DNA of 61,251 nucleotides, counting the filler. It is 6 parts of 6 records of this genome, joined end to end, with 100 filler letters (N's around TTAATTAATTAA, not from the genome) between each part and the next. Parts side by side here need not be neighbours in the genome. Positions count along the whole stretch, not along the records: positions 41,463 to 50,745 come from SRR31156797_8213; 5 more parts are not named here. One strand, 5' to 3'. A program made the translations under genes and the position numbers. How positions within the stretch are numbered: the first letter of the stretch is position 1; each line of letters opens with the position of its first letter. Of this stretch, positions 34,246 through 50,845 are shown in pieces. The notes beneath the pieces are model-generated. The model did no database searches. It saw only the letters and a list, made by a program, of their open reading frames with translations, and had not been told where the DNA came from.

Positions 34246-34262
34246 ATACAGAAATAAGGGAG

Positions 34263-35468
34263 ATGATCATAATGAAGATAATGCAACTCATCAAGAAAAA
34301 TCAGATGATCATATTTCCCGTTTTTGATATAGCCTTAAATGGTGTTAACTACTTTTTTCATATCTTTTGTAGTTGGTATCTGCTTGCAAAAGATTATGGT
34401 GTACTTAATTCACTGCTAAGTATAGTAGCGATACTTTTTGTTAGTGGTATATCATTTCAGATATATACTGCCAAAGAGGTCTCGGCCAGGCAAAGCACCT
34501 TATTTATCGGTGATCTGCTTAGAATAGTAGTTTTTTTTTCCTTGAGTGCTTTTGTTATTTTCACTTTATCTATAAAGTTTATTATTAATTTAACCCATTC
34601 AAATAGCTTAAATGTAATTATCTTAATAACAATCTTTATGATAAACATATATTTAAGTGTTCTTCGTGGGGTTATTCAGGGTAAAAAAGAGTTTATGAAC
34701 TTAAATATTAATTTTTATATAGAAGTTTTATCAAAGATGCTGATACTAATACTCTTTCTGCCTTATTTCAAAAACATATTAATTGTACTTTTAAGTATTT
34801 TGATTGGAATGAGTTTAGCTTTGATTCACCTTTTATATATTTTGCGAGAGGAGCTTAATATACATAAATCAGGTGAGATTATATCGCTTAGTGAAATAAG
34901 CGGAGTATTTATCTCAAACTTTTTTATATATTATTTTACTTCTGTAGATATGATTATAGTTAATTATTTCATACAAGAGATAGCGGGAGTGTTTGCAGTA
35001 ATCCTGCGATATAGTCAGATCTTAATGTTCGTTTCATTTAGTTTATTTACAGTATTTCTTCCCAGCTTAAGTGAAGTGAGTGCAGATAAAGAAAAATTTA
35101 AAGAGAAGGCACTTAAGTTTTTAATGATTTTTACCGGAATAAATATGCTCTTAATGATTTTCTATTATTATCTGGCACCATTCACTATTGAGATTTTATT
35201 TGGTGAAAACTATATTCAGGCGGGAAAATACCTGATATTCGGTGCTTTAGCATATTTTATGCTTGTAGCATGTTTTTATATAGTCAATCTGAATATTGTG
35301 CTTAAACGACGAAATTATTTGTATTATTTAGCATTATCAGCATTTGTCTTAACTTTTGCTTTGATAGTTTTTCATAAAGATATTCAAATGATACTAATAA
35401 TAGAAATTCTAGTTTATTTGTCATTATTTATAATGCTTGTATTTGATTTAAGAAAGAAATATAGGTGA
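34263..35468 (+). CDS. Oligosaccharide flippase (Wzx/MOP family)
   Basis: About 12 hydrophobic segments; LLAKDYGVLNSL, RGVIQG, DMIIVNYF, LFGENY. Confidence 0.75.
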   Translation: MIIMKIMQLIKKNQMIIFPVFDIALNGVNYFFHIFCSWYLLAKDYGVLNSLLSIVAILFVSGISFQIYTAKEVSARQSTLFIGDLLRIVVFFSLSAFVIFTLSIKFIINLTHSNSLNVIILITIFMINIYLSVLRGVIQGKKEFMNLNINFYIEVLSKMLILILFLPYFKNILIVLLSILIGMSLALIHLLYILREELNIHKSGEIISLSEISGVFISNFFIYYFTSVDMIIVNYFIQEIAGVFAVILRYSQILMFVSFSLFTVFLPSLSEVSADKEKFKEKALKFLMIFTGINMLLMIFYYYLAPFTIEILFGENYIQAGKYLIFGALAYFMLVACFYIVNLNIVLKRRNYLYYLALSAFVLTFALIVFHKDIQMILIIEILVYLSLFIMLVFDLRKKYR

Positions 35469-35472
35469 GGTT

Positions 35473-36621
35473 ATGGAGAGAGCAAAAATAACAATTCTTT
35501 TTCTGTCATGGCGGGATATTAAGGCACCCAAACGCGGTGGCGCCGAAGTATTCACTCATGAGATGCTAAAAAGAGTTGATAAAGAGAGATACAACTTAAT
35601 TCACTTTTCCCCTGAATATATAGACAAACAGGGAATCCCTTCTCCACTTGAAGAGGAGATAAACGGAATCAAATATCTTAGAAAGGGAAATCCAATCTCT
35701 GTAATATTGGAAGCCAGAAAATATTATCATAGAAATAAAAGAGAGATTGATTTTGTAGTTGATCAGTGTAATACACACAGGTTTTTTAGTAAGTTGTGGG
35801 TTAATAAAAAGAAGAGAATATTTTTTATTCATCAATTAACCAGAGAAATTTGGTTTATGAATATGAAATTTCCATTTAATTATATAGGTTATTTCAGCGA
35901 AACACCTTTTTTACGTTTATCAAGGAAAGATTACGCAATTACAGTATCTGATTCAACCAGAAAAGATCTTTTAAGAATAGGTTTTAAGAAAGAAAAAACT
36001 TATATTTTACCTGAAGGTCTTGATTTTATTCCCTGGGATAAAGAAAAATTTCTTGAAAAAGAAAAGGAACCGACCTTTATATACGTTGGCAGGTACTCTA
36101 ACTATAAAGGAATAGATAAAACAATAGAAGCTTTTGCCAGAGTTAAACATTTACAAACTAATGCTAAGTTATGGATAGTCGGCAAAAGAAATGATCAATA
36201 TATAGAAGAAGTTATCAGACCGATATTAGCTAAATATCAAACAGATGAAAACAGTATCATGTTTTGGGGCTTTGTAACAGATGAGAAAAAACTTGAGCTT
36301 ATGAGTAGAGCCCATGCTTTGCTTTTTCCGTCAAGCCGAGAGGGTTGGGGCCTCATAATAACAGAGGCTGGAGCAGTGGGAACTCCGAGTATAGGTTATA
36401 ATTCACCCGGTATAAGAGATGCTCTTGATATGGGAAAATCAGGATATTTATGTGCTGAAAATACAATTGATGAATTAGTTGATAAAATGGAGGAAGTTAT
36501 AAAAGATAAAGAAAAATATACTGAAATGAGAGAGAAATCTTATGAGTTTTCTAAAAGATTTCATTGGGATTACACAGCAGAAGCATTTGATAAATTTATA
36601 AATAGTATAGTCGAAAAATAA
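35473..36621 (+). CDS. Glycosyltransferase family 4
   Basis: LFLSWRDIKAPKRGGAE, YVGR..YKG, REGWGLIITEA..VGTPSIGY. Confidence 0.9.
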   Translation: MERAKITILFLSWRDIKAPKRGGAEVFTHEMLKRVDKERYNLIHFSPEYIDKQGIPSPLEEEINGIKYLRKGNPISVILEARKYYHRNKREIDFVVDQCNTHRFFSKLWVNKKKRIFFIHQLTREIWFMNMKFPFNYIGYFSETPFLRLSRKDYAITVSDSTRKDLLRIGFKKEKTYILPEGLDFIPWDKEKFLEKEKEPTFIYVGRYSNYKGIDKTIEAFARVKHLQTNAKLWIVGKRNDQYIEEVIRPILAKYQTDENSIMFWGFVTDEKKLELMSRAHALLFPSSREGWGLIITEAGAVGTPSIGYNSPGIRDALDMGKSGYLCAENTIDELVDKMEEVIKDKEKYTEMREKSYEFSKRFHWDYTAEAFDKFINSIVEK

Positions 36622-36654
36622 TAAATTATTCAACTGGAAAGAGCAGGTGTTGCT

Positions 36655-37533
36655 ATGGAAACAGTAACTATTGTAATGTCAACGTATAATAATGAAGATA
36701 TAATAGAGAAATGTATCATGAGTTGCTTAAATCAATATTATAAAAATCTGAATATATTGATAGCAGATGATGGTTCAACAGATTCTACTCTGGAGATAGA
36801 GCAACGTTTAGAGCAGGAATATGATAGGCTAAAAGTATTTGCGCTGCCTCATGGTGAAAGAGGAGTTGCGAGAAAAACAGTTATTGATGAAGCCAAAAAA
36901 CTAAAGAGTGATTATCTATATATTATAGATTCGGATATGATACTAAAAGAGGGCCTGATCAATGAATGTCTGGATTATTTCGAAGAAAATTCAAAAGTAG
37001 GAGCGCTTATAATTCCTGAAATTGCATTTTCAGAATATGATAATTTTATGAGTAAAGTGAAAGTATTTGAACGAAATATTATCAATAATGCCGGTATTAA
37101 TATAGGTGAAAACTCAATAGAAGCAGCGAGATTTTGGAAAATGAGTGAATATGAAAAAACTGGAGGAATTAATCCTAAGCAAATCTCTTTTGAAGAAACT
37201 CAGCCGACTATTCGTTATGTAGAGATGAATGGTGTGATAAAAAGAGCTGTTTTTACAGGAGTTATGCATAATGAAAAAAGAGTAACTCTGGAAAATATCC
37301 TGAAAAAGAAAAAATACTATTTTTCAAAAATGCCTACTACTTTAAATAGTGAAGAATCAGGATTTATGAAAGCCTTAAAAAGATGGTATTTCTTCCGACC
37401 TGTGCTATACAGATATGATAATATCCAAGAATATTTCAAACATCCGGTATTAACATTTGGGATGTTATATATGTATTTACGACTTACTTTGATAGGTGTA
37501 GGTGAAATAATAAAATCAAAAAATAATTCCTAA
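36655..37533 (+). CDS. Glycosyltransferase family 2
   Basis: TIVMSTYNNE, ADDGSTDST, IIDSDM. Confidence 0.88.
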   Translation: METVTIVMSTYNNEDIIEKCIMSCLNQYYKNLNILIADDGSTDSTLEIEQRLEQEYDRLKVFALPHGERGVARKTVIDEAKKLKSDYLYIIDSDMILKEGLINECLDYFEENSKVGALIIPEIAFSEYDNFMSKVKVFERNIINNAGINIGENSIEAARFWKMSEYEKTGGINPKQISFEETQPTIRYVEMNGVIKRAVFTGVMHNEKRVTLENILKKKKYYFSKMPTTLNSEESGFMKALKRWYFFRPVLYRYDNIQEYFKHPVLTFGMLYMYLRLTLIGVGEIIKSKNNS

Positions 37534-37812: not shown

Positions 37813-40704
37813 ATGAAAAAAGTTAAATTAAAAACATTATTATTATTTATTTATATAATTGTATCGACTGTTTTATTTGCGTTTGATTATAATATAAGTT
37901 TAAGTGGGATAGAAAAAAATTATTTGAGTAGAAATACTAATAAAATATATGTCGGATATTCCAATGATGAACCTTATGCCTTTAATGATGATGGGAATGC
38001 ACGAGGTTTCACTATAGATGTTATGAAGAAAATTGCAGAAAGAATTGGTGTTGAAATCGAATTTAATTATTATGATAACATTTCAACGAGATTAGAAAAA
38101 TTAAGGAAAAATGAAATTCAAATATTAACTAATATAATTTATTCGAAAGAGAGAGAAAAATTATTTAACTTTGGAGAGCTGAATATTGAGGCAAGATTTG
38201 CCATATATGTAAGAGAAGGTGATTCAGAAAAAAACTCTCTTGAAAAACTTAAAGGGAAAAAAATTGCTGTACTTGATAGTTATGGTTTGAATTCATTAAT
38301 AAAAAAATACTGTCCAAATGCAGATTTAGTTTACGTTGATTCACCGGATGAAATGTTAACTAAAGTATCTAAAGGAGAAGCTGATGCAACGATAATTGGT
38401 GAAAATGTAGGGAACTATAAAGTTCTAAAATTAGGCCTACATAATTTAATGATTGGAGCTTATGCTGATTTTGATGAACTAAAGGATACAAAAGTTTATG
38501 CTTATGTAGTTGATAAAGATAATGAAGTTCTTAGTTCTATTTTAGAAAAAGCTTATGAAACTTTAACTAAAAGTGAGATTTTAAATATTTGGAGAAAATG
38601 GACAAAACCACAAAGTTTTCCTTCTGAGAATAATTTGCTGAAATTATCAGCAGAAGAGATTGCCTATCTTGAAGCTAGAGACTATCTATCAGTTATGAGT
38701 TTGGATCAGTTTCAACCCTTTAATTTTGTCAGAGATGGAGAGGTAACGGGTTACTCAGTTGATTATATGAGATTGATAGCTAATCTATTGAATAAGGATT
38801 TGAAATTTATTCAAAAACCTTGGAGTAATCAGCTTGATATGCTCAAAAAAGGTGATTTGGATATTATTCCACATATTGCAAAAAATTCAGTTAGAGATAA
38901 ATTTGTTGATTATACTGATTTTATGCACTTGACATATTTAACGGGTTTTATTGTACAACAAAGTAGTGAAATAGATAAAATGGAAGATCTGGCTAAAAGA
39001 AAACTTGCCGTGGTGAATAAAACATATATTCATGATTATTTGGTAGCGAATTTTCCAAATACAGACTTATTACTTTTGGAGTCCACTGAAAAGGTAACTG
39101 AAGCTGTTGCACAAGGAAAAGCTTATGCAGGAGTGGGAAGTTTACCGACATTTAATTACTTTATTCAGGAAAAATGGCTTGGAAATTTAAAAATAGCAGA
39201 TGTTAGTAATTTTGGTTTAGCATTGGAAACCAAAATGCCAATGGGAGTAAAAAAAGGTAATAGAGTACTAAAATCAATACTGGAAAAAGCGCACGCAGCT
39301 GTACCGGAAGAAGAGATTAACAAACTAAAACATAAATGGCTAAATATGGAATTAAATACTTATAATCCAAATAAACTATCAGTTAGAGAAGAGACTTTTG
39401 TAAAAAATAATTCTATAATTAGATTTAGAATTAGAAATAACAGACCGCCTTTTGAATTTGAAAAAGATGGAAAACCTGCCGGTCTGACAGTTGATTACTT
39501 GACTGTTATTGCAAAAAAAATCGGACTAAATATTGAATTCATTTTAGATGATAGCAGTTCTAAAGAAGCGCTTAAAATAATGAATAAGCGAGATAAATTT
39601 GATACTCTTGCATATTTAGTAAAAAGTGAAGAAAGAGAAAAAAGATTTGCATTTGGAGATTCATATCTATCATATCCAATGATGATAATAAGTCATAAGA
39701 AATCTTCATATATAGGAAAAACAGCAGATTTAAGAGGAAGAAAAGTAGCTGTTGAAAAAGGTTTTTTAACTAAAGAATGGCTCAATAGAGATTATTCGGG
39801 TATAAATATAGTTGATGCTAAAGATACAAAGGAAGCATTGCAAATGGTTAATGATGGAGAAGTGGATGCATATGTGGGAAATCTGGCTATAGCAAACTAT
39901 ATGATGACACATGGAGGTATGAATAACTTAAAAGTTCAAGCTCCGTCTGGCTATGGCGATATCAATTATCATTTCGTTGCTCCGAAAGAGTGGCCTGAGC
40001 TGGTATCTCTTTTAAACAAAGGTCATAATATGCTTACGGCAAATGATCATACTTTGATACAGCAGAGATGGTTCTCTCTACAAGTAATGGAAACTTTTAA
40101 TTACAGACTATTAATACAGATTATAGTTTTATCTTTTATTTTTATAGTTACTATATTGTATTGGAATCGTCAATTATCACTGGAGAAATCTAAAACTAAA
40201 AAAGCATTAAAAGAATTAAAAGAAGTATCGGTAAGAGATAAACTAACTTCACTGTTTAATCGAATTAAACTAGATGAAGTTTTAGAAGATGAATTTGAAA
40301 GAGCAAAAAAATTAGATAAAACTTTTGCATTGATTATTATAGATATTGATTTCTTTAAGCGAGTTAATGATACTTACGGTCATAATGTAGGAGATAAGGT
40401 ACTGATAGAGTTCTCCAATCTTTTAAAAGAAAATTTTAGAGATGTTGATACGATAGGTAGATGGGGAGGGGAGGAATTTTTAATAATTTGTCCCGAAACC
40501 AATAAAGATGAAATTATAGTAGTTGCTGAAAAAATTAGGCAGATTATAGAGAAAAATCAATTTGAGCAGGTAGGTCGTGTAACTGCAAGTTTAGGTTGTA
40601 GTGTTTATGGACAAGATGAGTTCATTGATGACGTTATAGTTAGAGCTGATAATGCTCTCTATTTGTCGAAAAATAGCGGAAGAAATCAAGTTAATTATGA
40701 GTAA
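37813..40704 (+). CDS. Diguanylate cyclase with three periplasmic PBPb domains
   Basis: Signal peptide; three repeats beginning EPYAF, QPFNF and PPFEF; one TM helix; RDKLTSLFNR, DIDFFK.VND.YGH..GD, RDVD I-site and RWGGEEF. Confidence 0.9.
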   Translation: MKKVKLKTLLLFIYIIVSTVLFAFDYNISLSGIEKNYLSRNTNKIYVGYSNDEPYAFNDDGNARGFTIDVMKKIAERIGVEIEFNYYDNISTRLEKLRKNEIQILTNIIYSKEREKLFNFGELNIEARFAIYVREGDSEKNSLEKLKGKKIAVLDSYGLNSLIKKYCPNADLVYVDSPDEMLTKVSKGEADATIIGENVGNYKVLKLGLHNLMIGAYADFDELKDTKVYAYVVDKDNEVLSSILEKAYETLTKSEILNIWRKWTKPQSFPSENNLLKLSAEEIAYLEARDYLSVMSLDQFQPFNFVRDGEVTGYSVDYMRLIANLLNKDLKFIQKPWSNQLDMLKKGDLDIIPHIAKNSVRDKFVDYTDFMHLTYLTGFIVQQSSEIDKMEDLAKRKLAVVNKTYIHDYLVANFPNTDLLLLESTEKVTEAVAQGKAYAGVGSLPTFNYFIQEKWLGNLKIADVSNFGLALETKMPMGVKKGNRVLKSILEKAHAAVPEEEINKLKHKWLNMELNTYNPNKLSVREETFVKNNSIIRFRIRNNRPPFEFEKDGKPAGLTVDYLTVIAKKIGLNIEFILDDSSSKEALKIMNKRDKFDTLAYLVKSEEREKRFAFGDSYLSYPMMIISHKKSSYIGKTADLRGRKVAVEKGFLTKEWLNRDYSGINIVDAKDTKEALQMVNDGEVDAYVGNLAIANYMMTHGGMNNLKVQAPSGYGDINYHFVAPKEWPELVSLLNKGHNMLTANDHTLIQQRWFSLQVMETFNYRLLIQIIVLSFIFIVTILYWNRQLSLEKSKTKKALKELKEVSVRDKLTSLFNRIKLDEVLEDEFERAKKLDKTFALIIIDIDFFKRVNDTYGHNVGDKVLIEFSNLLKENFRDVDTIGRWGGEEFLIICPETNKDEIIVVAEKIRQIIEKNQFEQVGRVTASLGCSVYGQDEFIDDVIVRADNALYLSKNSGRNQVNYE

Positions 40705-41462: not shown

Positions 41463-41517
41463 AAGCTTGTAGAAGCTCATAGCGTCTCTATTTTTGGACA
41501 CGGGTTCAATTCCACCA
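41463..41517 (+). ncRNA. ssrA: tmRNA 3' end, partial and apparently missing about 10 nt of the T-arm/acceptor 3' strand
   Basis: AAGCTTGTAGAAG...TTTTTGGACACGGGTTCAATTCC-ACCA matches the tmRNA 3' pattern (..GTAG..GGACGCGGGTTCRAYTCCCGCCAKCTCCACCA) except for the gap. Confidence 0.7.
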
Positions 41518-41577
41518 ATGAAATCCACGACTGTGACTTTTCTAGAGAGTTACAGGGCGTTAACGAATAGATGAAGT

Positions 41578-41614
41578 AGAGATTAAGACTGTAGAGGTCT
41601 TAATCTCTTTTTTT
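41578..41614 (+). repeat. Hairpin repeat family B, copy 1 (terminator-like); other copies at 49747-49785 and 50608-50646
   Basis: AGAGATTAAGAC-tgtagag-GTCTTAATCTCT plus T-run. Confidence 0.75.
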
Positions 41615-41625
41615 ATTAGGTTAAC

Positions 41626-41654
41626 TTGAAATAATAATGTTAAAGAAGTATAAT
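41626..41654 (+). promoter_or_regulatory. sigma70 promoter (copy 1 of a shared motif)
   Basis: TTGAAA-17 nt-TATAAT, with the spacer ending in AGAAG. Confidence 0.75.
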
Positions 41655-41685
41655 GTTAAATAATGCAAATAAAAAGGGGAATATA

Positions 41686-43446
41686 ATGACATTAAAAGAA
41701 ATAATTGAAGAAGATGAAAAATATCAAAAACTTTTAAAAAGCTTTGGAAACCTCAGAGCAGATACAGAAATTACTTTAGATTCATCAAAAAGAAAATTAG
41801 AAAACCTTAAAGATATTTATGTCGATATAGATGGGAGGTTAGATAATTTAATTTCTACTTCAACAGTTTCTAGTGGAGTAGTAACAGGTTTAAGAGGAAC
41901 AGGGAAAACACATTTATTTTTATTAGCAAAAAATGAAATTAATAAAAATATTATCGAAGGAAAAACAATATGTGTTTATATTAACTTGAAAAGATTTGAT
42001 TTACCAGGTTCTTCCGATAAAGAGATTTTAAATAGAGCATTTAGTTTGTTTTTATATTCAGAAGTTTCTAATCAGTTATTAAAAATCATTAATGATAATA
42101 AAGATAAGGGGTTAATGAGTTCATTTAGAGATTTTTTTAATAATGATAAGAAAAAAATGTTCAAAAATTTAGAAATAGCATTAGATAAAATTTTAGAATT
42201 TAAAAGAATAGCAAAGATTGGAAATCAAGAGCTTACGTATTTAACTAAATCTGATATAGGTTTTGAAGATTTTCAAAAAGAAGTATTAGATTTAAGATTG
42301 AAGCTTAAAAGTGATTGGGATATTAAAAACGCTTCATTAGGAACTGAGTTAGAAACTAAAATTTCCGAAAGTTTGGAAGAAAGTATAAAAAGAAAAGCCG
42401 ATTATTTAAGGTATTTAAATTTAAATGAAATAAGAAATCAATTAGTAGAAATAGTTTCTATTTTAAAAATTGACTCTTTCACTTTTTACTTAGATGAATG
42501 GGAAAAATTATATAATTATCAAAATGCTCAGAAATATATGTCAGAATATATAAATAAAATAATAGAAACACCATTACATTTTTGGCTGGGAATAGTTCCA
42601 CATAGAGGTGGAACATATGGTTTAGTTAGAAGTGCAGATTTAGTCCACACAATTAATCTTGATGAAGGTCTTATATATGAAAACTCAAAAGAAGATAAAC
42701 AGAAGTGTTTGAGCTATTTTAAAAATTTTATCAATAGAAGGTTGAAGTACTATTTAGAGGAAGAATATAACTATAGAGATTTACTAGGAGAGGATAAGAA
42801 ATTAAGTAAATTAGTTATAGCCTCTATGGGAAATAGTAGAGATTTTGGTGTCATGCTTCACCAGTCACTAACAGAATTTAAAAGCAGCGGCAATAATAGA
42901 TTAAAATATATAAGCCTGTCTATGATAAGGAAAGCTATAAAAAAATTAGGAAATGATAAAGTAAGTAATATTTCAAATGATGATAATATTTTAAGAGTTT
43001 GGAATGATCTTGAAAGTTACTGTAAAGATAAAAAAAGTAGCCACTTTGTAATCTTAGATAATTCTGAAAATAAAAGAATTTTGAATGATATTTTATTTTC
43101 AGAATTAATTTATCAAAGAATGCTTCACTTTAGAAAAGAGGGATTATCAGGGAAAGATAAGACAGTAGAAGGTAGGTTATCTTTATATGCCTTGAATTAC
43201 TCTTCGACATATGAATTACATGAAAAAGATAAAAAAATGGAGTTTATGGTTGAATATAATGAAATACATGATAAAGTGAGGAGATATATCTATAATCCTG
43301 TAGAGATTTACAGAAAGATAAAAATCAAAGAGGGAGAGGTTGTTGCTTGTCCTAGTTGTAATGAAGAGATCAACATAATAAAAATGAAAGCAATGTGGGA
43401 TATGAATCTATGCCCGTTTTGTGGTAAGAAACTAAGAGAAGAGTAA
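41686..43446 (+). CDS. P-loop NTPase (ORC/Cdc6- or STAND-like) with C-terminal zinc ribbon
   Basis: Walker A GLRGTGKT, Walker B FYLDEWE, sensor-like GNSRDF, C-terminal CPSC...CPFC. Start moved to 41686 (AAGGGGA RBS; the 41653 start overlaps the -10 box). Confidence 0.75.
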   Translation: MTLKEIIEEDEKYQKLLKSFGNLRADTEITLDSSKRKLENLKDIYVDIDGRLDNLISTSTVSSGVVTGLRGTGKTHLFLLAKNEINKNIIEGKTICVYINLKRFDLPGSSDKEILNRAFSLFLYSEVSNQLLKIINDNKDKGLMSSFRDFFNNDKKKMFKNLEIALDKILEFKRIAKIGNQELTYLTKSDIGFEDFQKEVLDLRLKLKSDWDIKNASLGTELETKISESLEESIKRKADYLRYLNLNEIRNQLVEIVSILKIDSFTFYLDEWEKLYNYQNAQKYMSEYINKIIETPLHFWLGIVPHRGGTYGLVRSADLVHTINLDEGLIYENSKEDKQKCLSYFKNFINRRLKYYLEEEYNYRDLLGEDKKLSKLVIASMGNSRDFGVMLHQSLTEFKSSGNNRLKYISLSMIRKAIKKLGNDKVSNISNDDNILRVWNDLESYCKDKKSSHFVILDNSENKRILNDILFSELIYQRMLHFRKEGLSGKDKTVEGRLSLYALNYSSTYELHEKDKKMEFMVEYNEIHDKVRRYIYNPVEIYRKIKIKEGEVVACPSCNEEINIIKMKAMWDMNLCPFCGKKLREE

Positions 43447-43457
43447 TTTAAAATTAG

Positions 43458-43552
43458 TAGCACATGAGAAAATTAATTCTCATGTGCATTTTTTTCATCT
43501 AACAATTTCTAAATTTTCTTAAACAGCCATAATTGCCCTTCTACCAATTAGC
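43458..43552 (-). repeat. Repeat family A, copy 1: hairpin plus 3' remnant of an antirepressor gene
   Basis: GCACATGAGAA/TTCTCATGTGC hairpin; the minus strand reads QLWLFKKI*KLLDEKNAHEN*. Confidence 0.85.
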
Positions 43553-43582
43553 TTACATATTCATTTTCTTTTGTTTGTTAAC

Positions 43583-43611
43583 TTGAAATAATGATACAAA
43601 AGAAGTATACT
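43583..43611 (+). promoter_or_regulatory. sigma70 promoter (copy 2)
   Basis: TTAACTTGAAATAAT...AAAGAAGTATACT, 17-nt spacer; near-identical to copy 1. Confidence 0.75.
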
Positions 43612-43651
43612 GTTTTAGAGTTAATTAATTATTCTGAGGAGAATTTGTAGA

Positions 43652-46078
43652 ATGCTAAGAAAACAAAAAAATGAAAAGAAATTAATAATAGTTTTAACAA
43701 TAATTTTTGGAATAAGTTTTATTTCAGATATTATTCCTTCGATGGTAGTATCTGGATTATCTTCAAAATTATCAGAGGATGATTTTTATTCTACTGTGTT
43801 AGCTTTATTCCAGATTCAAGCTACTGTTTCAGCATTTGGAATTGCCGTAATCTCTTTAATAGCATCACTACATAATGAGACAGTTTTGGGGATATTTATT
43901 CCTAAATATTTTTTACAATTAAAGAATAAATATTTAAAGCTTAGTTATGTTATTTTGATAAGTTTGTTTTCTTTAATGATATCGTATATATGTATATCTT
44001 TCAAGTTTTATAATTCTGTAATAGCCATTTTTTTTATAGTTATTATTTTGATTATGTATCTTTCAAATGAAGTTTTTTCAATTTTTACTACTAGAAAATC
44101 AAATTTAAAAAAGGAAATTAAAGATTTTATATTAAAACTACCTAATAGAAAGAGATTTAATCTTGTTTTTGATATTGATGATGACATGACTCAACAATAT
44201 GAAAATAACGAGGATTCAAAGTTTAAAGAAAATTTTGAAATGTTAATTGAGATATTTAAGAATGACTATAACGAAATAATAACTATCAAAACAGAAATAG
44301 AATTATGGAGTGATTTATTTAGAAAGAATATTCAAAATTTATATAAAAGAGAGAGTTCTTTACCCGGGGATTTTTCTTCGTATAAATATATATTTGAGTT
44401 AGTTAAAATAGATATCTCAAACAAAGCAAATATTTGGAGTAGTCAAGTTTTGCCTTTTTATACATCATTTAGAGAAAAAGAAGTAATTAAGTATGATGAT
44501 TATTGTATTATAAAAAAAATTAGGAGACAGCTTTATGATAATCTAAATGATTTGGATGAAGCTTATTATTTGTTACCTCATTTTAGTTCCACAATTTACC
44601 ATCATATCTTATTAAATGAATCTGTTGATTTTACTGAGAATTATGAAAAAGTTAATTGTTACAATACAATTAAAAATAATATTAAATATGGATTTAGAAG
44701 TGAGCTTCAGCAAAATATATTATATGATGAGTTACTTAGATATATAATCGCATTAATTCAAAAATATGACTATAAAACTCTAAATAATACGATTATAGAT
44801 GAAATTGAATCTAATAGAACTCTTAATGTTGAAGAATTGGAAATTTTTTATTCAATGTTGATATATCTATATTATTTAATTGAGAAAGAAGAGTTGGTTA
44901 AGAAAGAAATAAAGGAGAAGCATCGACAGTTTATAAATGAAAATAGTTCTTCATTGTATTTTTATTTATTAGCTGTAACTTTTTCTCCAGTAAAAACTAC
45001 TATGGAAAAAATCTTAAAGAATCTTTCAGTATGGGAAATTTATCCTGAAAAAGAAGCTAAGTTTGTAATGATGGAGTCTGTGATTAGAAACTTTTTCATA
45101 TTCAATTCGCTATACTTATCCAAAAATAAAGATGAACTTTATTCAAGGTTGAATAACTTTATTAAAGAAAATGCTTTTTCTACTTATGAAAATTATAATA
45201 TAAAAAAATCTGAAATGTTAGCTAAAGAATATGAGAAGTTTGTAAAACTATTTTATCAACATGCAAGGGAATTTAACTATGAGAAGGCAAAAGAGGAGAT
45301 AATATTATTAGATACTGTAATATCAGAAATATATAAAGTACAAGAATTAAAGGAAAGTTTCAATAATGATTATTCTGAAAGTAAAAAGAATGAATTAATA
45401 AGAAACCTAATGGATAAACTTTCTTTTGAAATTCGAAGAGTATCAAATTTATTTTTAGGAAATAGCAAAGACTATAAGATGATTAAGGTAAAAAAAATAA
45501 TACCTATTGAGTTTCCAATTACATTTGATGCGAATAATGCTGAACTTTATAAAATGTTTATGAATACTTTTATCATATATGTGATACGTTCGATTAATGA
45601 AAAAATTAAAGTGAATAAACTTGATTTTCAAAAGGATGATATATTAGCTAAATTTTTTGGAGAACTGTCAAAACAAGATGTAGTTGTTGATTTATTAATT
45701 GGATATAGAGATTGGTTTTACGATAGTAAAGAGGCTGATCGATTTAATGAATTTCAGAAAGGAATGAAGAAAATTGTAGCACCGTTTAAGTTATCAAATA
45801 TTTTGTTGGCGGTAAATAGTCATTACGTGGCTCTTCAAGTAAACAATATTTCGATTAAGATAGAAAAACTAAACATTGATGAAGTAAAGAAAAAGCTAAA
45901 AAGAGATAAAGAAGGAAAATATTTATTCAATGTAACAAATGAAATATTTTTACCATTTGATGAGAATGAGTTAAAAAATTATATTGATAATACTGAAAGA
46001 GAAATAAAATTGGAAATAGATTATGAAATTGGATTTGCTTCTAATAAAATTGGAGTTTCAATAGTAAATAAAAATTGA
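43652..46078 (+). CDS. Hypothetical protein with about 4 N-terminal TM helices and a large soluble domain
   Basis: 808-aa ORF with GAGGAG RBS and hydrophobic segments in the first roughly 145 aa; no motif recognised. Confidence 0.7.
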   Translation: MLRKQKNEKKLIIVLTIIFGISFISDIIPSMVVSGLSSKLSEDDFYSTVLALFQIQATVSAFGIAVISLIASLHNETVLGIFIPKYFLQLKNKYLKLSYVILISLFSLMISYICISFKFYNSVIAIFFIVIILIMYLSNEVFSIFTTRKSNLKKEIKDFILKLPNRKRFNLVFDIDDDMTQQYENNEDSKFKENFEMLIEIFKNDYNEIITIKTEIELWSDLFRKNIQNLYKRESSLPGDFSSYKYIFELVKIDISNKANIWSSQVLPFYTSFREKEVIKYDDYCIIKKIRRQLYDNLNDLDEAYYLLPHFSSTIYHHILLNESVDFTENYEKVNCYNTIKNNIKYGFRSELQQNILYDELLRYIIALIQKYDYKTLNNTIIDEIESNRTLNVEELEIFYSMLIYLYYLIEKEELVKKEIKEKHRQFINENSSSLYFYLLAVTFSPVKTTMEKILKNLSVWEIYPEKEAKFVMMESVIRNFFIFNSLYLSKNKDELYSRLNNFIKENAFSTYENYNIKKSEMLAKEYEKFVKLFYQHAREFNYEKAKEEIILLDTVISEIYKVQELKESFNNDYSESKKNELIRNLMDKLSFEIRRVSNLFLGNSKDYKMIKVKKIIPIEFPITFDANNAELYKMFMNTFIIYVIRSINEKIKVNKLDFQKDDILAKFFGELSKQDVVVDLLIGYRDWFYDSKEADRFNEFQKGMKKIVAPFKLSNILLAVNSHYVALQVNNISIKIEKLNIDEVKKKLKRDKEGKYLFNVTNEIFLPFDENELKNYIDNTEREIKLEIDYEIGFASNKIGVSIVNKN

Positions 46079-46085
46079 TTAAGAA

Positions 46086-46372
46086 TAGCACATGAAGGAT
46101 TAATTTACTTCATGTGCATTTTTTTCTTCTAGTAACTTCTAAATCTTCTTAAACAACCATAATTGCCCTTTACCAGTCAGCATAGGTTGAAATAACACCT
46201 TCCCTTGAATAGTTCTAGGAACAACAACAAAGTAACCTCTCTTAATAAACTCCTGATAAGGTTTGTTTCTTGTCTTTTTAGAGCTAATTAAAATCTTAGC
46301 ATCTCTCAATAAGTTAAACATTTGATTCCTGCCAAGCTTAAACTCATCATAGCAAACACTAGAAAATTGATT
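46086..46372 (-). pseudogene. Repeat family A, copy 2: phage antirepressor KilAC-domain gene remnant plus hairpin
   Basis: Reads ...DEFKLGRNQMFNLLRDAKILISSKKTRNKPYQEFIKRGYF...LTGKGQLWLFKKI*; paralogous to 47395-47905; 5' part absent. Confidence 0.8.
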
Positions 46373-46382
46373 TTATAAATGG

Positions 46383-46411
46383 TTGAAAAAATTACTGAAT
46401 AGAAGTATACT
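46383..46411 (+). promoter_or_regulatory. sigma70 promoter (copy 3)
   Basis: TTGAAA-17 nt-TATACT, with the spacer ending in AGAAG. Confidence 0.7.
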
Positions 46412-46442
46412 TAAAGACCAAATATAAAAAAGGGGATTAGTC

Positions 46443-46985
46443 ATGATAAAAGAGCAAAAAGAAATTCAAAGTAAGTTTAAAGAAGAAATTATAAAAATTT
46501 GGGAAACAAAAGTATTGCGAGACTATAAGAGAGGTTTTCTTTTAAGGGAAGACACTTTAAAAATAAGGTTTTGTAAGCATATCTTTGATGTGTTTAAGGA
46601 TAAATTTTTTCTTGATAATGAAGTAAGATTATATTCAGAATATACATTCTCTAATACAGGGATGAGAGCTGACTTGGCGTTATTGGATATAGAAAATGAT
46701 GACCCGCTAGTAATTATAGAGCTAAAATACAAAGACCTTAATAATAGAACTGAGTCAAAAATTAAAGAGGATTATGATAAGATGTTAAGATATAAAGATT
46801 TATATAAAAACTGTGACTTGTTTATGGCTGTAGTGAGTGGCAATGTTGATGAAAAAGCTTGTTGTAAATCTTGGATAAAAGATTTTAAAATGAAGACAGA
46901 CTTTAGAAGAGTACGAATAACTGAATTATTGATAGATGAAACGGATGATGGAAAAGTAGAAACAGCAGTTTTTGAATACAGATAA
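46443..46985 (+). CDS. Putative PD-(D/E)XK nuclease-fold protein
   Basis: LREDTL...SEY...RADLALLD...IIELKY...DYDKM arrangement typical of restriction-endonuclease-like folds. Confidence 0.6.
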   Translation: MIKEQKEIQSKFKEEIIKIWETKVLRDYKRGFLLREDTLKIRFCKHIFDVFKDKFFLDNEVRLYSEYTFSNTGMRADLALLDIENDDPLVIIELKYKDLNNRTESKIKEDYDKMLRYKDLYKNCDLFMAVVSGNVDEKACCKSWIKDFKMKTDFRRVRITELLIDETDDGKVETAVFEYR

Positions 46986-47087
46986 TATTTAGAATGATTT
47001 GTGATAGCTTAATTAATTTCTTTACAAACTAAAAATTTTATATTACCATATAGAGCTAGAAAAACAACTCAGGAGGATTTTAATACA

Positions 47088-47364
47088 ATGACAAAGAAAG
47101 AATTCATTGAAAAATATGCAGAAAAAACAGGATTAACTAAATAAAGAAGCAACGGACTATATCGAAGGATTTTTAACTACAGTAGAAGATGTTCTTTCAG
47201 AAGGGGATAAAGTTCCGTTTATTGGATGGGGAACTTTTGAAACTAAAGAAACTAAAGAGAAATTAGGGAGAAATTCTAAAACAGGGGAAAAAGTAATGAT
47301 TTCTGCAAGAAAAGTAGTTAAATTTAAAGCAGGTAAGAAGTTAGCTGAAAAAGTTGATAGATAA
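47088..47364 (+). pseudogene. hup: HU family DNA-binding protein, frameshifted
   Basis: MTKKEFIEKYAEKTGLTK, then an extra T at 47142 creates TAA. The shifted frame continues KEATDYIEGF...IGWGTFE...GRNSKTGE...VVKFKAGKKLAEKVDR*. AGGAGG RBS. Confidence 0.85.
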
Positions 47365-47380
47365 TAAATTTAAATTAATA

Positions 47381-47905
47381 GCACATGAAGGAAATTAATC
47401 CTCATGTGCATTTTTTTCATCTAACAACTTCCTAACCTTTTGAAACAACCAGAGCATTCCCTTGCTACTTAAAAGAGGTTGAAATAACATTCTACCATTG
47501 ATAATTCTAGTAGTAACAACAAAATAACCTCTCTTAATGTACTCTTGATATGGCTTGTTTCTTGTACTCTTTGAACTAATCAATATTTTACTATCTCTTA
47601 ATAGGTCAAATAAACTATTTCGCCCCAATTTAAACTCATCATAAAACACACTTGCAAATTGATTCAAAGAAATAACATTCTCACATGTACTAATATTTTC
47701 AGCAAACTCAACTTTAGGCTGTGCTTCTAAAAGCTTCACACGTAACTCATTAAGCTCGTCATGTAATCCCTCAACTTCAATCTTAGCTTGCTTTGCAATT
47801 GCTTCTATAGCATTTACAGCACCGTTAACCCTAACATCTACATCACTATTACTTTCAACTTCAATCAAATAATTAACAACTGCTTTTGCTACATCAGATT
47901 TCCTG
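47381..47905 (-). pseudogene. Repeat family A, copy 3 (longest): 5'-truncated phage antirepressor with KilAC (ANT) domain plus hairpin
   Basis: AQPKVEFAE, ISLNQFA, LGRNSLFDLLRD, NKPYQEYIKRGYF, LLSSKGMLWL. The N-terminus given in the ORF track (47905-47985) looks spurious. Confidence 0.8.
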
Positions 47906-48139
47906 AATAATAAACAAGCAAAGAAAAGTAAGTGTGAAAAGAGAAGACCTGTACATAAAGTACAGTTATGCACACTATGAGACATTCACGAGGGAGAAAA
48001 AGATGTTATCGTGATCAATGGAGAAAATGTCAGGTAAATAAATGACTATTAAAAAAGTAAAGGAATGGATGTTTCTTGGCGAATATAATAATATGAGAAG
48101 ATAAAGAGAAGTTAATATACTAATTGAAGGAGGTAATGT

Positions 48140-48319
48140 ATGGTCAAATTAAGAGAAGCGATGATTGATGAGGAAATAGAAATAATTTGTGAGAAAAGAG
48201 AAGATAAAGTAGATAAAATGATATCTAGATTTAGATCTAGTCAGAATACAAACAGTAATCTTTTTACTAAGATTCTAAAAAATATAAATATGAAATTAAA
48301 TTCAAAAAATAGATGTTAA
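48140..48319 (+). CDS. Short hypothetical ORF (59 aa), possibly a fragment
   Basis: GGAGGT RBS, MVKLREAMIDEEIEIICEK...; no motif recognised. Confidence 0.3.
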   Translation: MVKLREAMIDEEIEIICEKREDKVDKMISRFRSSQNTNSNLFTKILKNINMKLNSKNRC

Positions 48320-48329
48320 TAAAAGAAAT

Positions 48330-48545
48330 GATTAACTTGAGAAATTTTCACGAGGAGAACTAAGAACTTCGTTAATGATTAAATCTAAAGATGAATTTGG
48401 AGAGCTTTCTAATAGGTTTAATGCTTTTGTTAGTAAATTAAAAATACTATATGAAATTTTAAATCATTAGCATCTACGGTTGAAGAAGACAATATTGAAT
48501 TGTTCAAGTCAATAGATAATGTTATTAATGGAAATAATTCTAAAT
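48330..48545 (+). pseudogene. HAMP-domain/chemoreceptor gene fragment
   Basis: EKFSRGELRTSLMIKSKDEFGELSNRFNAFVSKLK matches the HAMP consensus; a frameshift follows and there is no intact gene. Confidence 0.55.
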
Positions 48546-48650
48546 ATTCAATTGAAGATCTAAAATTTTTTAAATTAGATAATAAATTTGAAATGATTGC
48601 AGAAAAAGAAAGTATATTTGAAAAACGTCATTTTGCTTAAAAAAAATGAT

Positions 48651-48733
48651 AATGCACATGAGGAACTTAACCCTCATGTGCATTTTTTTCATCTAATAAC
48701 TTCTGAATCCTCTTAAATAGCCACAATTGCCTT
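48651..48733 (-). repeat. Repeat family A, copy 4: hairpin plus short antirepressor remnant, cut off at a REP
   Basis: AATGCACATGAGG/CCTCATGTGCATT; the minus strand reads QLWLFKRIQKLLDEKNAHEG*. Confidence 0.85.
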
Positions 48734-48836
48734 GGGCGTTATAAATAACGCCCGTACGGGATGAAGTTTTATGTGTTTAAGGAAACAGCACGGAATGCCA
48801 TGGATTTAACCTGTACGGATGTTATTTATAACATCC
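48734..48836. repeat. Pair of REP-like palindromes in opposite orientation upstream of the transposase
   Basis: 48734-48757 is the reverse complement of GTACGGGCGTTATTTATAACGCCC; 48813-48836 is GTACGGATGTTATTTATAACATCC. Confidence 0.75.
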
Positions 48837-48984
48837 AACTTCCAAGATAGCAACCTGAAAAAAAGTAATTAAAACAACCGATTAGATGATATATAATGAA
48901 AAGAGTTGCGTAGAAGCTCATTTACTATTTGCTATCTGAATGTATATACAGTAAAATAGATTAATTTATTTTAGGCGGTGGGGC

Positions 48985-49527
48985 ATGAGATACAATCCAG
49001 ATTATCATAAAAGAAATTCTCAAAGATTAAAAGGACATGATTACTCAAAAGCAGGATTATACTTTATCACAATTTGCACTTTTGAAGGAGAGCGATGTTT
49101 CGGAGAAATAATAGATGGGGAAATGAATCTTAATTTTGCTGGCAAAATTGCTAATGATGAATGGTATAAATTAGCTGAAAGATTTGAAAATATTAAACTT
49201 CATGAATTTATCGTTATGCCGAATCATATTCACGGAATAATTGAAATTATAGATGACTTAAAATCAAATGATATTGAGAGAAATAATGAAAACTATTACT
49301 CGCAAATCTCACCTAAATCAAACACACTATCAATTTTAATCCGAAGCTATAAATCATGTGTATCAAAAACCATCCGTACGGGTGTTATTAATAACACCCA
49401 ACGTTATTTCAGGTGGCATAGAAATTATTATGATAATATTATTAGGGATAAGGAAACATTTGAAAAGGTATCAAACTATATTAGGAATAACCCTAAAAAT
49501 TGGAAAGAGGATAAATTTTTTGAGTAA
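48985..49527 (+). mobile_element. REP-associated tyrosine (Y1/HUH, IS200-like) transposase
   Basis: RLKGHDYSKAGLYFITICT, FIVMPNHIHGII (HUH), WHRNYYDNIIR, YIRNNPKNW (catalytic Tyr). Confidence 0.88.
49376..49399 (+). repeat. Third REP-like palindrome, inside the transposase CDS
   Basis: GTACGGGTGTTATTAATAACACCC, read through in frame as RTGVINNTQ. Confidence 0.75.
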
Positions 49528-49611
49528 ATAGTATTATTCGTAGCAATAGCTAACTAAATTCAGTTACGGTATAATGATAATAATTAAATTATTGCTATTT
49601 ATGGAGGGGTT

Positions 49612-49770
49612 ATGGAAAATTTAAAAGAAAGAGATATAAAATATTTAAGAGAAACTTTTGATATGTTTCCTGAGATAGATAAATTTATAATATTCGGAAG
49701 TCGAGCAATGGGAAACTACAAACAAGGGTCAGATATTGATTTAGTTAAAGAGAGATTAGGTCTTAGATGA
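49612..49770 (+). pseudogene. Truncated minimal nucleotidyltransferase (MNT/MntA-like antitoxin)
   Basis: MENLKERDIKYL...IIFGSRAMGNYKQGSDIDLV runs into hairpin B and stops at 52 aa; GGAGG RBS. Confidence 0.7.
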
Positions 49771-49859
49771 TTAATCTCTCTTTTTAGTTTAGAAAATTAT
49801 ATGATACAATAATACAAAAGCAAGAAATATTAAAGCCTTTAAATTATAATTAAGGAGAA

Positions 49860-50600
49860 ATGATCATGGATTTCAAAAAAATAGATGAATTAAAAGAAAA
49901 ATTAGATGAACATAGACCGCTTCCAAAAGAATCTTTGCGTAGTCTTCATGAAGATCTTGTGTTGAGATGGATATATAACTCAAATGCAATTGAAGGAAAT
50001 ACGCTGACTTTAATAGAAACTAAAGTAGCCCTAGAAGGTATTACTATTGGTGGAAAAACATTGAGAGAACATTTTGAAGTAATTAATCATAGAGAAGCTA
50101 TCCTGTATGTTGAAGAACTAGTTAAGAAAAATGAACTTCTTACAGAATGGGATATTAAGTCTATACATAGACTAGTTCTAAAGAATATAAATGATGAGAA
50201 CAGTGGAAAATATAGAAATGTAAATGTAATTATATCGGGAGCCGAGCATGAACCACCACATTTTCTAAAGCTTGATGAAGAAATGAGAAATTTAATAACT
50301 TGGTATGAAAACGAAGCAGTAAATATGCATCCTGTAGAAAGAGCAGCTAGAGTACATAGTGATTTTGTAAAGATTCATCCATTTGTTGATGGTAATGGAA
50401 GAACCTCACGGCTATTAATGAATTTAGAGTTGATGAAAAGTGGATATCCAGCAGCAATTATTAAAGTAGAAGATAGACTTGATTACTACAAAGCATTAGA
50501 TTTAGCTAATACTAAAGGAGATTATCAACCATTTTTAGAGTTAATATCAAAAGTGGTAGAAGATAGTTTTGATAAGTATTTTTATATAATAGGAGAATAA
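49860..50600 (+). CDS. Fic family protein (class II, autoinhibitory motif N-terminal)
   Basis: HPFVDGNGRTSR catalytic motif; SNAIEGN inhibitory motif. Confidence 0.92.
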   Translation: MIMDFKKIDELKEKLDEHRPLPKESLRSLHEDLVLRWIYNSNAIEGNTLTLIETKVALEGITIGGKTLREHFEVINHREAILYVEELVKKNELLTEWDIKSIHRLVLKNINDENSGKYRNVNVIISGAEHEPPHFLKLDEEMRNLITWYENEAVNMHPVERAARVHSDFVKIHPFVDGNGRTSRLLMNLELMKSGYPAAIIKVEDRLDYYKALDLANTKGDYQPFLELISKVVEDSFDKYFYIIGE

Positions 50601-50607
50601 ATTAGTG

Positions 50608-50646
50608 AGAGCTTAAGACTGTAAATGGTCTTAAGCTCTTTTTTTC
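50608..50646 (+). terminator. Hairpin family B, copy 3; terminator of the Fic gene
   Basis: AGAGCTTAAGAC-tgtaaatg-GTCTTAAGCTCT plus T-run. Confidence 0.75.
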
Positions 50647-50845
50647 AATTATCCTATATTTAAGTTATAATTTGACTATAGAACTTAACCTTTTATAAAA
50701 ACATAAACATTCTCTTTTGAGTTCTCAGAAGAAAATTTATATCCANNNNNNNNNNNNNNNNNNNNNNNNNNNNNNNNNNNNNNNNNNNNTTAATTAATTA
50801 ANNNNNNNNNNNNNNNNNNNNNNNNNNNNNNNNNNNNNNNNNNNN

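Follow-up and report, generated by a model that had tools for sequence, protein, structure and literature searches.

Integrons carry an intI gene, attC sites (R''-L''...L'-R') and promoterless cassettes that share a single promoter, Pc. Grounded or domesticated defective prophages, eroded by deletion while genes useful to the host are kept, are said to have been described by Bobay et al. in 2014. The Islander catalogue contains 125 tandems of two or more among 3919 islands, with the transfer-messenger RNA (tmRNA) gene as the most enriched target (PMC4383910), and in Dehalococcoides the T loop is the insertion site of rows of ssrA islands, with a 20-bp repeat bounding every island; some of these islands are without integration modules and may be fixed in place (PMC3146451). 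Phage morons are transcribed independently, each from its own promoter to its own terminator (PMC3594210), and at the P2 and P4 hotspots fixed slots are occupied by defence cargo that varies (PMC13586616). Here we describe a locus on one contig of a 61,251-nucleotide (nt) stretch of DNA, which we call the window. Next to tmRNA 3' sequence, this contig carries a row of four plus-strand blocks, each ending in the same hairpin, and the hairpin belongs to the end of an oppositely oriented antirepressor gene; three of the blocks hold a cargo gene behind a predicted promoter of its own. We are slightly more inclined to believe than to doubt that a head-to-tail stack of at least four integrative elements, related to one another but diverged, formed beside the tmRNA sequence, and that each element was pruned by deletion to a moron-like unit.

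The antirepressor array and the adjoining tmRNA sequence

The window (1-61251) consists of six contigs with G+C contents of 0.27-0.53, joined by linkers of the form N44-TTAATTAATTAA-N44 at about 16732, 27399, 41363, 50746 and 56065; because of this construction, the neighbours of a contig in the window are not its genomic neighbours. The array contig, one of the six, occupies exactly 41463-50745 (9283 nt, G+C 0.27). Coordinates are those of the whole window and strands are as given in it. The contig is present in a single public sequencing run, which may be its source. In the Logan assembly of that run (k=31), which represents a second assembler applied to the same reads and not a second sample, we found a 7980-nt contig that covers 41463-49442 with 0 differences and a flat depth of 42.5, spanning all four antirepressor/hairpin repeats, and an adjoining contig of 1330 nt that covers 49416-50745 at a depth of 40.2. 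Both Logan contigs end where the window's contig ends. The longest exact repeat inside the contig is 27 nt and no 31-mer recurs, so the repeats cannot have misled a de Bruijn assembler. From these results, we conclude that the assembly of the contig is sound. Skip joints among the run's contigs, with sides of 21-25 nt, we attribute to repeats or to other organisms, and we do not read them as the loss of cassettes.

The antirepressor 3' end with its hairpin occurs in four copies on the minus strand (43444-43555, 46070-46372, 47365-47985 and 48641-48734). The gene remnants within these copies are:

43476..43555, minus strand: antirepressor remnant 1, about the last 25 codons (tblastn against copy 3, 73% over 22 amino acids; blastn against copy 2, 83% over 101 nt)
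46109..46372, minus strand: antirepressor remnant 2, 88 codons of KilAC with one in-frame TAG (PF03374, E 2.9e-13; 75% amino acid identity to copy 3)
47395..47985, minus strand: antirepressor copy 3, KilAC and linker whole, N-terminal domain missing (PF03374, E 1e-18)
48673..48734, minus strand: antirepressor remnant 4, about 20 codons, cut by a hairpin of the repetitive extragenic palindrome (REP) type (tblastn, blastn)

Against the Pfam ANT/KilAC model PF03374, copy 3 scored 68.1 bits and copy 2 scored 50.5 bits, both above the cutoff of 25.3. Copies 1 and 4 are too short for this model and were recognised by tblastn and blastn; tblastn with copy 3 as the query recovered all four copies. An earlier note on this DNA had reported four oppositely oriented antirepressor ends sharing one hairpin, and the minus-strand matches to PF03374 and by tblastn confirm them. 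Copy 3 is an open reading frame (ORF) of 196 amino acids that matches positions 208-357 of the 431 positions of phrog_63; no N-terminal domain of the Bro-N, AntA or KilA-N type was found in it, and it is thus not a full-length antirepressor. The four genes, all in one orientation, are cut at four different 5' points that leave about 25, 88, 196 and 20 codons, and each stump runs directly into the next promoter region. Such varied 5' cuts abutting the next promoter fit the pattern that deletion would leave.

The copies are well diverged, their shared 78-nt blocks being 77-86% identical. Over 88 codons, copies 2 and 3 can be aligned with no gaps (synonymous differences Sd 36.0/49.0, nonsynonymous differences Nd 31.0/212.0), which gives pS 0.735, pN 0.146 and a dN/dS ratio of 0.056, with synonymous sites saturated. 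Their differences at codon positions 1, 2 and 3 number 21, 11 and 37, a pattern that was lost in two out-of-frame controls. The low ratio and the saturated synonymous sites indicate that copies 2 and 3 were still working genes under purifying selection while they diverged, their truncation coming later, and therefore that recent duplication in place followed by drift is rejected. This divergence fits separate acquisition from related elements; it fits old paralogues within one element equally well.

The hairpins at the ends of the four blocks are:

43460..43495, plus strand: hairpin H1 with T7, predicted terminator of cargo 1 (fold, terminator scan)
46088..46125, plus strand: hairpin H2 with T7 (fold)
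47381..47417, plus strand: hairpin H3 with T7 (fold)
48651..48691, plus strand: hairpin H4 with T7 (fold, terminator scan)

For the 17-mer GAAAAAAATGCACATGA, the window has 4 occurrences where shuffles predict 0.06; neither this 17-mer nor the opposite arm, TCATGTGC, varies among the four copies. Hence 17 + 8 nt of the hairpin and A-run are unchanged in 4/4 copies despite the saturation of synonymous sites. The consensus stem has eight invariant pairs, and two further pairs show a compensatory change in one of the four copies; the antirepressor stop codon sits in the loop. In the plus-strand reading, U7 follows each hairpin and the folding energies are -15.8 to -21.5 kcal/mol (z-scores -3.9 to -6.6); in the minus-strand reading, a good U tract is confined to copy 4. 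Because of this difference between the strands, the hairpin is best read as a predicted intrinsic terminator of the plus-strand cargo gene. In copies 1 and 2, a TAG lies 12 codons ahead of the stop of copy 3 and the nucleotides past it are still conserved, indicating that the constraint there acts on DNA or RNA and not on protein. A look-alike of the hairpin at 49747-49783 was weak and not significant, and we set it aside.

A terminator scan of the contig returned 12 sites against 1.7 expected, including H1, H4 and both copies of a second putative terminator, T2:

41578..41615, plus strand: T2 hairpin and T run, after the tmRNA end and before promoter P1 (terminator scan, fold)
50607..50647, plus strand: second T2 copy, after the Fic gene (terminator scan, fold)

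The two T2 copies (41565-41614 and 50595-50645) are 82% identical over 51 nt, with one compensatory stem change from A-T to C-G. The word GAATAR precedes both copies, and in the right-hand one it contains the Fic stop codon. The T-rich stretch right before promoter P2 may be a vestige of the 3' half of T2; the similarity is weak.

Three of the blocks begin with a promoter match:

41626..41654, plus strand: promoter P1, TTGAAA-17-TATAAT (11/12 consensus positions, best in the contig)
43583..43611, plus strand: promoter P2, TTGAAA-17-TATACT (motif search, repeat families)
46383..46411, plus strand: promoter P3, TTGAAA-17-TATACT (motif search, repeat families)

P1-P3 agree with the sigma-70 consensus at 10-11 of 12 positions, with 17-nt spacers, and are mutually homologous over 29-57 nt. 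Each lies 30-45 nt ahead of a cargo start, followed by a ribosome-binding site and a start codon. A motif derived from P1-P3 was found 3 times in the window and 0 times in shuffles, the motif having been drawn from these same sites. Promoter-like sites as a whole are not above chance in this A+T-rich contig (59 against 61 expected); it is therefore their homology and position that make the case for P1-P3. In the fourth block, nothing better than a weak look-alike was seen, at 48093-48121. These data bear out the claim that the first three cargo genes have related promoters, all three being of the form TTGAAA-17-TATAMT. Judged by consensus and folding, each of the three units has its own predicted promoter and its own predicted terminator, and the description of the blocks as self-expressing holds to that extent; it does not extend to the fourth block, which consists of debris with the weak look-alike.

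The tmRNA sequence lies at the very start of the contig:

41463..41517, plus strand: tmRNA 3' fragment, its 5' side cut by the contig end, with a final ACCA (Rfam RF00023)

When the stretch was searched alone, 41463-41514 matched positions 310-374 of RF00023 with 24.3 bits (E 2e-8), a score below that model's gathering score of 47, and the fragment was missed both by ARAGORN and by an Rfam scan at gathering threshold. The alignment leaps from the T loop directly to the final A: the contig reads ...GGGTTCAATTCC and then ACCA, missing exactly those 10 nt that form the 3' sides of the T and acceptor stems. For comparison, we collected 32 viral-contig loci with the same 18-nt T arm; 29 of them go on with CGT, 28 with CGT-N5-CCAC and 18 with CGT + 7 nt + ACCA, and CGT-N5-CCAC is absent in the contig. 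Within 41502-41517 the missing 10 nt would sit between ...TTCC and ACCA, in what looks like a short deletion between TCC repeats. Their loss would abolish the acceptor stem, and this copy is predicted to be unable to fold as a tmRNA end. A whole tmRNA would combine T arm, acceptor stem and CCA end; the contig's copy does not, and the contig does not reach as far as its 5' part. The copy represents either a gene that was damaged or a duplicate fragment, displaced and marking the far end of an island located outside the contig. Elsewhere in this run, contigs match 41463-41513 with one difference (depth 66.8) and with four differences (depth 24.8), both ceasing to match right after 41513, and therefore intact or variant tmRNA ends exist in the sample; a further contig matches 41522-41585 with five differences (depth 37.3). 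We found no second tmRNA-derived stretch in the contig and none between the units; the contig ends may hide others. Together, these results uphold the earlier placement of the array after tmRNA 3' sequence, and reduce the proposed tmRNA 3' end to a defective fragment.

How the array may have arisen

According to the reading that we favour, the stacked elements would have been of prophage or satellite type, related and well diverged, each with a moron-like slot at the end nearest its attachment site. This slot would have held a sigma-70 promoter, one variable gene, and a terminator hairpin overlapping the last codons of a convergent antirepressor gene. Deletions would then have run from inside each antirepressor gene to just upstream of the promoter of the next unit, removing integrase and attachment repeats, and the remainder would be what selection could keep, namely promoter, gene and terminator. 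The last antirepressor codons would persist because their A-run and hairpin form, on the other strand, the terminator of the cargo gene. The outcome would be a fixed row of independently transcribed accessory genes, with nothing resembling an active capture machine. Thus, where the locus had been proposed as a site of serial capture and decay, the diverged antirepressors, ragged cuts and tmRNA context support the accretion and decay of related elements and not a capture system.

We searched the contig for recombinases and the public collections for relatives. No tyrosine or serine recombinase was found in the 10 ORFs and the 29 of 98 stop-to-stop frames of at least 30 amino acids that were scanned, the remaining frames, inside or antisense to large ORFs, lying outside the scan; the sole recombinase is a REP-associated tyrosine transposase (RAYT) to the right of the array. 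The earlier statement that no integrase lies in the contig is therefore upheld for these frames. The scanned ORFs likewise contain no IntI beside the array; the contig spans 9.3 kb, and a distant gene is possible. Exact hairpin patterns, which required 22-25 exact bases and would miss diverged relatives, gave one match in genome contigs (an unrelated Bacillus efflux-pump terminator), 0 matches in viral contigs, and 10 loci in metagenome contigs that have nothing in common with our contig beyond the hairpin words. The antirepressor protein had 4 matches, at 30-36% identity, among 5.8 billion proteins, one distant match in viral contigs, and 396 records among named phages, all below 60% identity. 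A megablast search of the whole contig against phages and plasmids gave no match.

Several of our observations weigh against the stacking of whole elements. We found no relatives of the hairpin/antirepressor element in the collections searched, no tmRNA-derived direct repeat lies between the units, and no integrase or other element backbone is left in the contig; because of this last point, integration at tmRNA is something that we infer and do not see. Three separate deletions end no more than about 45 nt from a promoter, and such ends need either selection or repeated trimming; a recombination-prone boundary would equally give the same result. The dN/dS ratio cannot tell orthologues of different elements from old paralogues within one element. 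Furthermore, the unit adjoining the tmRNA sequence is not the most intact, and the defective tmRNA copy, cut as it is by the contig end, may be the displaced fragment of an unseen island to the left.

Some of these points would be accommodated if the array had always been local. A single element or chromosomal hotspot would then have held several complete units, each comprising promoter, cargo, hairpin and convergent antirepressor paralogue, built as related phages recombined at their short conserved ends; what was deleted later would have been no more than the 5' part of each antirepressor gene, a few hundred bases, and whole elements would never have been stacked. Consistent with this, the antirepressor stumps directly abut the next promoter, attachment repeats are missing between the units, recombination could use the conserved promoter and terminator ends as linkers, and the dN/dS ratio fits old paralogues as well as orthologues. 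We nevertheless consider such an origin unlikely, while giving it real weight: the loci that we retrieved offer no precedent and no relatives were found, the weak likeness of the sequence before P2 to the 3' half of T2 hints at the context of a P1-like element end, and four truncated antirepressors with none intact would be an odd end state for a working module. A long shot is that the promoter end and the hairpin/antirepressor end serve as docking homologies for a family of phage-like elements; recombination there, needing no integrase dedicated to it, would allow every arriving relative to deposit its self-expressed cargo in tandem, which would make the locus an integrase-free, one-way collector of accessory, perhaps anti-phage, genes beside tmRNA.

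The regular layout, single orientation and conserved imperfect palindrome at each unit end are also what active, integron-like capture might produce, with a recombinase encoded elsewhere acting on the hairpin or on the terminator-promoter boundary. We judge this very improbable. RAYT is the only recombinase in the contig and its REP hairpins differ in sequence; the stumps of about 60-590 nt leave no fixed unit boundary; the hairpin is already explained as gene end and terminator; and it has no other copy in three public collections, as searched with 22-25 exact bases. The integron resemblance drawn in the earlier note is therefore not supported, in view of the recombinase, the ragged stumps and the lack of tmRNA repeats between units. 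To tandem duplication of one unit in place, followed by drift and replacement of the cargo, we give almost no credence: the direct repeats in one orientation would suit it, yet the dN/dS ratio and saturated synonymous sites show that copies 2 and 3 were not drifting as dead copies, and the cargo genes are mutually unrelated. An assembly chimera, in which several strains were joined at the repeats, is just as hard to credit. It might be suspected from a metagenome sample with related strains, from the occurrence of the tmRNA piece, the RAYT piece and the right end on other contigs at depths of 25-67, and from the position of both contig ends at branch points of the assembly graph; against it stand the uniqueness of every 31-mer in the contig and the independent k=31 assembly of the same run, with its one contig over all four repeats. 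Misassembly of several strains had been named as the finding that would overturn the earlier interpretation, and the second assembler instead reproduced the array at even depth. We retain the stacking and pruning of related elements as our favoured reading.

Cargo genes, right-hand flank and other contigs

The genes and debris within the array are:

41686..43446, plus strand: cargo 1, ORC/Cdc6-like AAA+ ATPase with a C-terminal zinc ribbon, 586 amino acids (homologues, AlphaFold model, Foldseek)
43652..46078, plus strand: cargo 2, 808 amino acids, membrane-spanning N-terminus, no known family (profile searches)
46443..46985, plus strand: cargo 3, PD-(D/E)XK-fold protein of 180 amino acids (homologues, model)
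47088..47364, plus strand: HU/IHF-family gene with a frameshift near 47137-47144 (PF00216, E 2.3e-22 on the second frame; direct reading)
47986..48640, plus strand: debris comprising the promoter look-alike at 48093-48121, an ORF of 59 amino acids and a HAMP fragment (HAMP, E 1.4e-5 at 48336-48467)

This content agrees with that first read from the sequence, namely a zinc-ribbon ATPase, an 808-amino-acid membrane protein, a PD-(D/E)XK protein with a broken HU gene, and debris. The cargo genes are unrelated to one another, and the fourth block contains no gene. Cargo 1 starts at an ATG after a ribosome-binding site, giving 586 amino acids; the longest ORF begins at 41653. It has 113 homologues of about 600 amino acids, none of them functionally named, and the family is patchy across Clostridium, Bacillus and other genera. 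The closest match is 84% identical and lies on a 1.9-kb contig. In 401 sampled genomes of one phylum we found two weak partial matches and no full-length copy, and in viral contigs no relatives. The AlphaFold model (pLDDT 83) matched archaeal Orc1/Cdc6 best in Foldseek (E 1e-5) and RdrA, TnsC and BrxC more weakly, with TM scores of 0.3-0.5. We regard cargo 1 as a candidate for a single-gene conflict system. The start regions of cargo 1 (41680-41716) and of the broken HU gene (47082-47118) are 78% alike over 37 nt (E 0.02), which could be chance or a shared translation-start context.

Cargo 2 has no match in Pfam, PADLOC or PHROGs, and its single NCBIfam match, to XopAE, is sub-threshold (15.9 bits against a cutoff of 600). 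Only three homologues were found, at 26-27% identity, and its matches in the atlas are confined to unnamed Bacillota clusters. Cargo 3 has 81 representatives at E values up to 1e-3 and belongs to a small, unnamed family that no Pfam model covers. Residues E66, D77, E93 and K95 are invariant in 35 aligned sequences, W20 is a further invariant residue, and the model (pLDDT 95) gave weak matches to restriction-endonuclease-like folds (YaeQ, BstEII, SfsA and DrdV). With PADLOC 2.0, cargo 2 and cargo 3 had no match and cargo 1 had only one, at E 0.0018, on its zinc ribbon. Below E 1e-3, PADLOC recognised only Fic and the nucleotidyltransferase fragment in the contig, neither of which lies in the antirepressor array, and HU and chemoreceptor debris are not defence genes; the notion of an accumulating defence library is thus not supported.

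To the right of the array lie:

48732..48839, no strand assigned: pair of REP hairpins (repeats; third copy at 49374-49402)
48985..49527, plus strand: RAYT, Y1 type (NF047646, E 2.6e-13; PF01797)
49612..49770, plus strand: MntA-type nucleotidyltransferase fragment of about 52 codons, ending at a hairpin (PF18765, PF01909, NF047752)
49860..50600, plus strand: Fic-domain protein (PF02661, E 1e-24; PADLOC PDC-S04, E 1e-37, and SoFic, E 6e-35)

REP hairpins flank RAYT, each beside the word GTACGG, and the third REP is embedded in the RAYT ORF, in its 3' part. Joints of REP type are numerous among the run's contigs, which suggests that the REP family is spread through the host genome and that the DNA is chromosomal. 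The nucleotidyltransferase fragment matches PADLOC PDC-S09 at E 1e-5 and has no HEPN partner present. Fic, compared with plasmids, proved to belong to a widely transferred family that is uninformative on taxonomy.

Two separate contigs of the window contain other genes. At 28630-33093, an ORF of 1487 amino acids without a Pfam match at E 1e-5 adjoins a glycosyltransferase/polysaccharide-synthesis cluster (33112-37533), near a protein with three SBP_bac_3 stretches and a GGDEF domain (37813-40704). The contig at 50846-56064 encodes two HxlR regulators, a zinc alcohol dehydrogenase and, truncated by the contig end, the beginning of a large two-partner-secretion (TPS domain) exoprotein.

Comparison with known systems

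We met no account of such an array among the papers that an open-access library returned on antirepressors, hotspots, defense and tmRNA, judged by titles and the starts of abstracts. Integrons, together with clusters of attC sites lacking integron integrases (CALIN), resemble the locus in being one-way rows of single-gene units, each ending in an imperfect palindrome. Unlike them, the contig is without intI, its palindrome is the end of a protein gene and a predicted terminator, three units have a promoter match of their own (10-11 of 12 positions) in place of a shared Pc, and the unit boundaries are ragged. The palindromes at antirepressor ends and the stumps of about 60-590 nt argue against precise, attC-type cassettes. 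As in domesticated prophages, an element would have been eroded and its useful genes kept; unlike those, which are usually single, erosion would here have brought several neighbouring elements down to the same minimal unit.

The likeness to tandem islands at tmRNA lies in accessory genes accreted serially downstream of tmRNA, in one orientation, with the integration module lost from some members, which are fixed in place. Unlike those islands, which have a tmRNA direct repeat each and in many cases an integrase, the contig has neither; its units are one gene long and their landmark is an antirepressor gene end. By Islander's criteria, there is no displaced target-gene fragment at the other end and no integrase in the contig, whose ends may hide others. 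Like phage morons in the description cited above, the units each combine a gene foreign to its neighbours and adjoining a phage gene with their own promoter and terminator, here predicted by consensus and folding. Morons are described there inside intact phage genomes, usually singly; in the contig four lie in a row and the phage is gone, leaving the antirepressor stumps as the only phage-type sequence. The P2 and P4 hotspots share a fixed slot beside conserved element genes, with cargo that differs among relatives and is in large part anti-phage. They differ in that thousands of intact elements were compared and many cargos tested, whereas the slot here would be deduced from four remnants, and in that the array cargo has no PADLOC match below E 1e-3.

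If related elements were indeed stacked and pruned as we favour, the array would show the limit to which tmRNA-stacked elements can erode, one gene with a transcription start and stop, and a phage-gene stump would survive only as a terminator. For annotation, a short KilAC stump combined with a hairpin can serve as a marker of single-gene accessory units and of places where elements once ended, and two uncharacterised candidates are flagged here, the ORC/Cdc6-like zinc-ribbon ATPase and the small PD-(D/E)XK family. A new mechanism would be at hand only if relatives showed ongoing gain of units. As it stands, the contig combines the known themes of island stacking and decay and is not a new capture system; what sets it apart from the systems above is only how cleanly four elements would have been trimmed to the same minimal unit.

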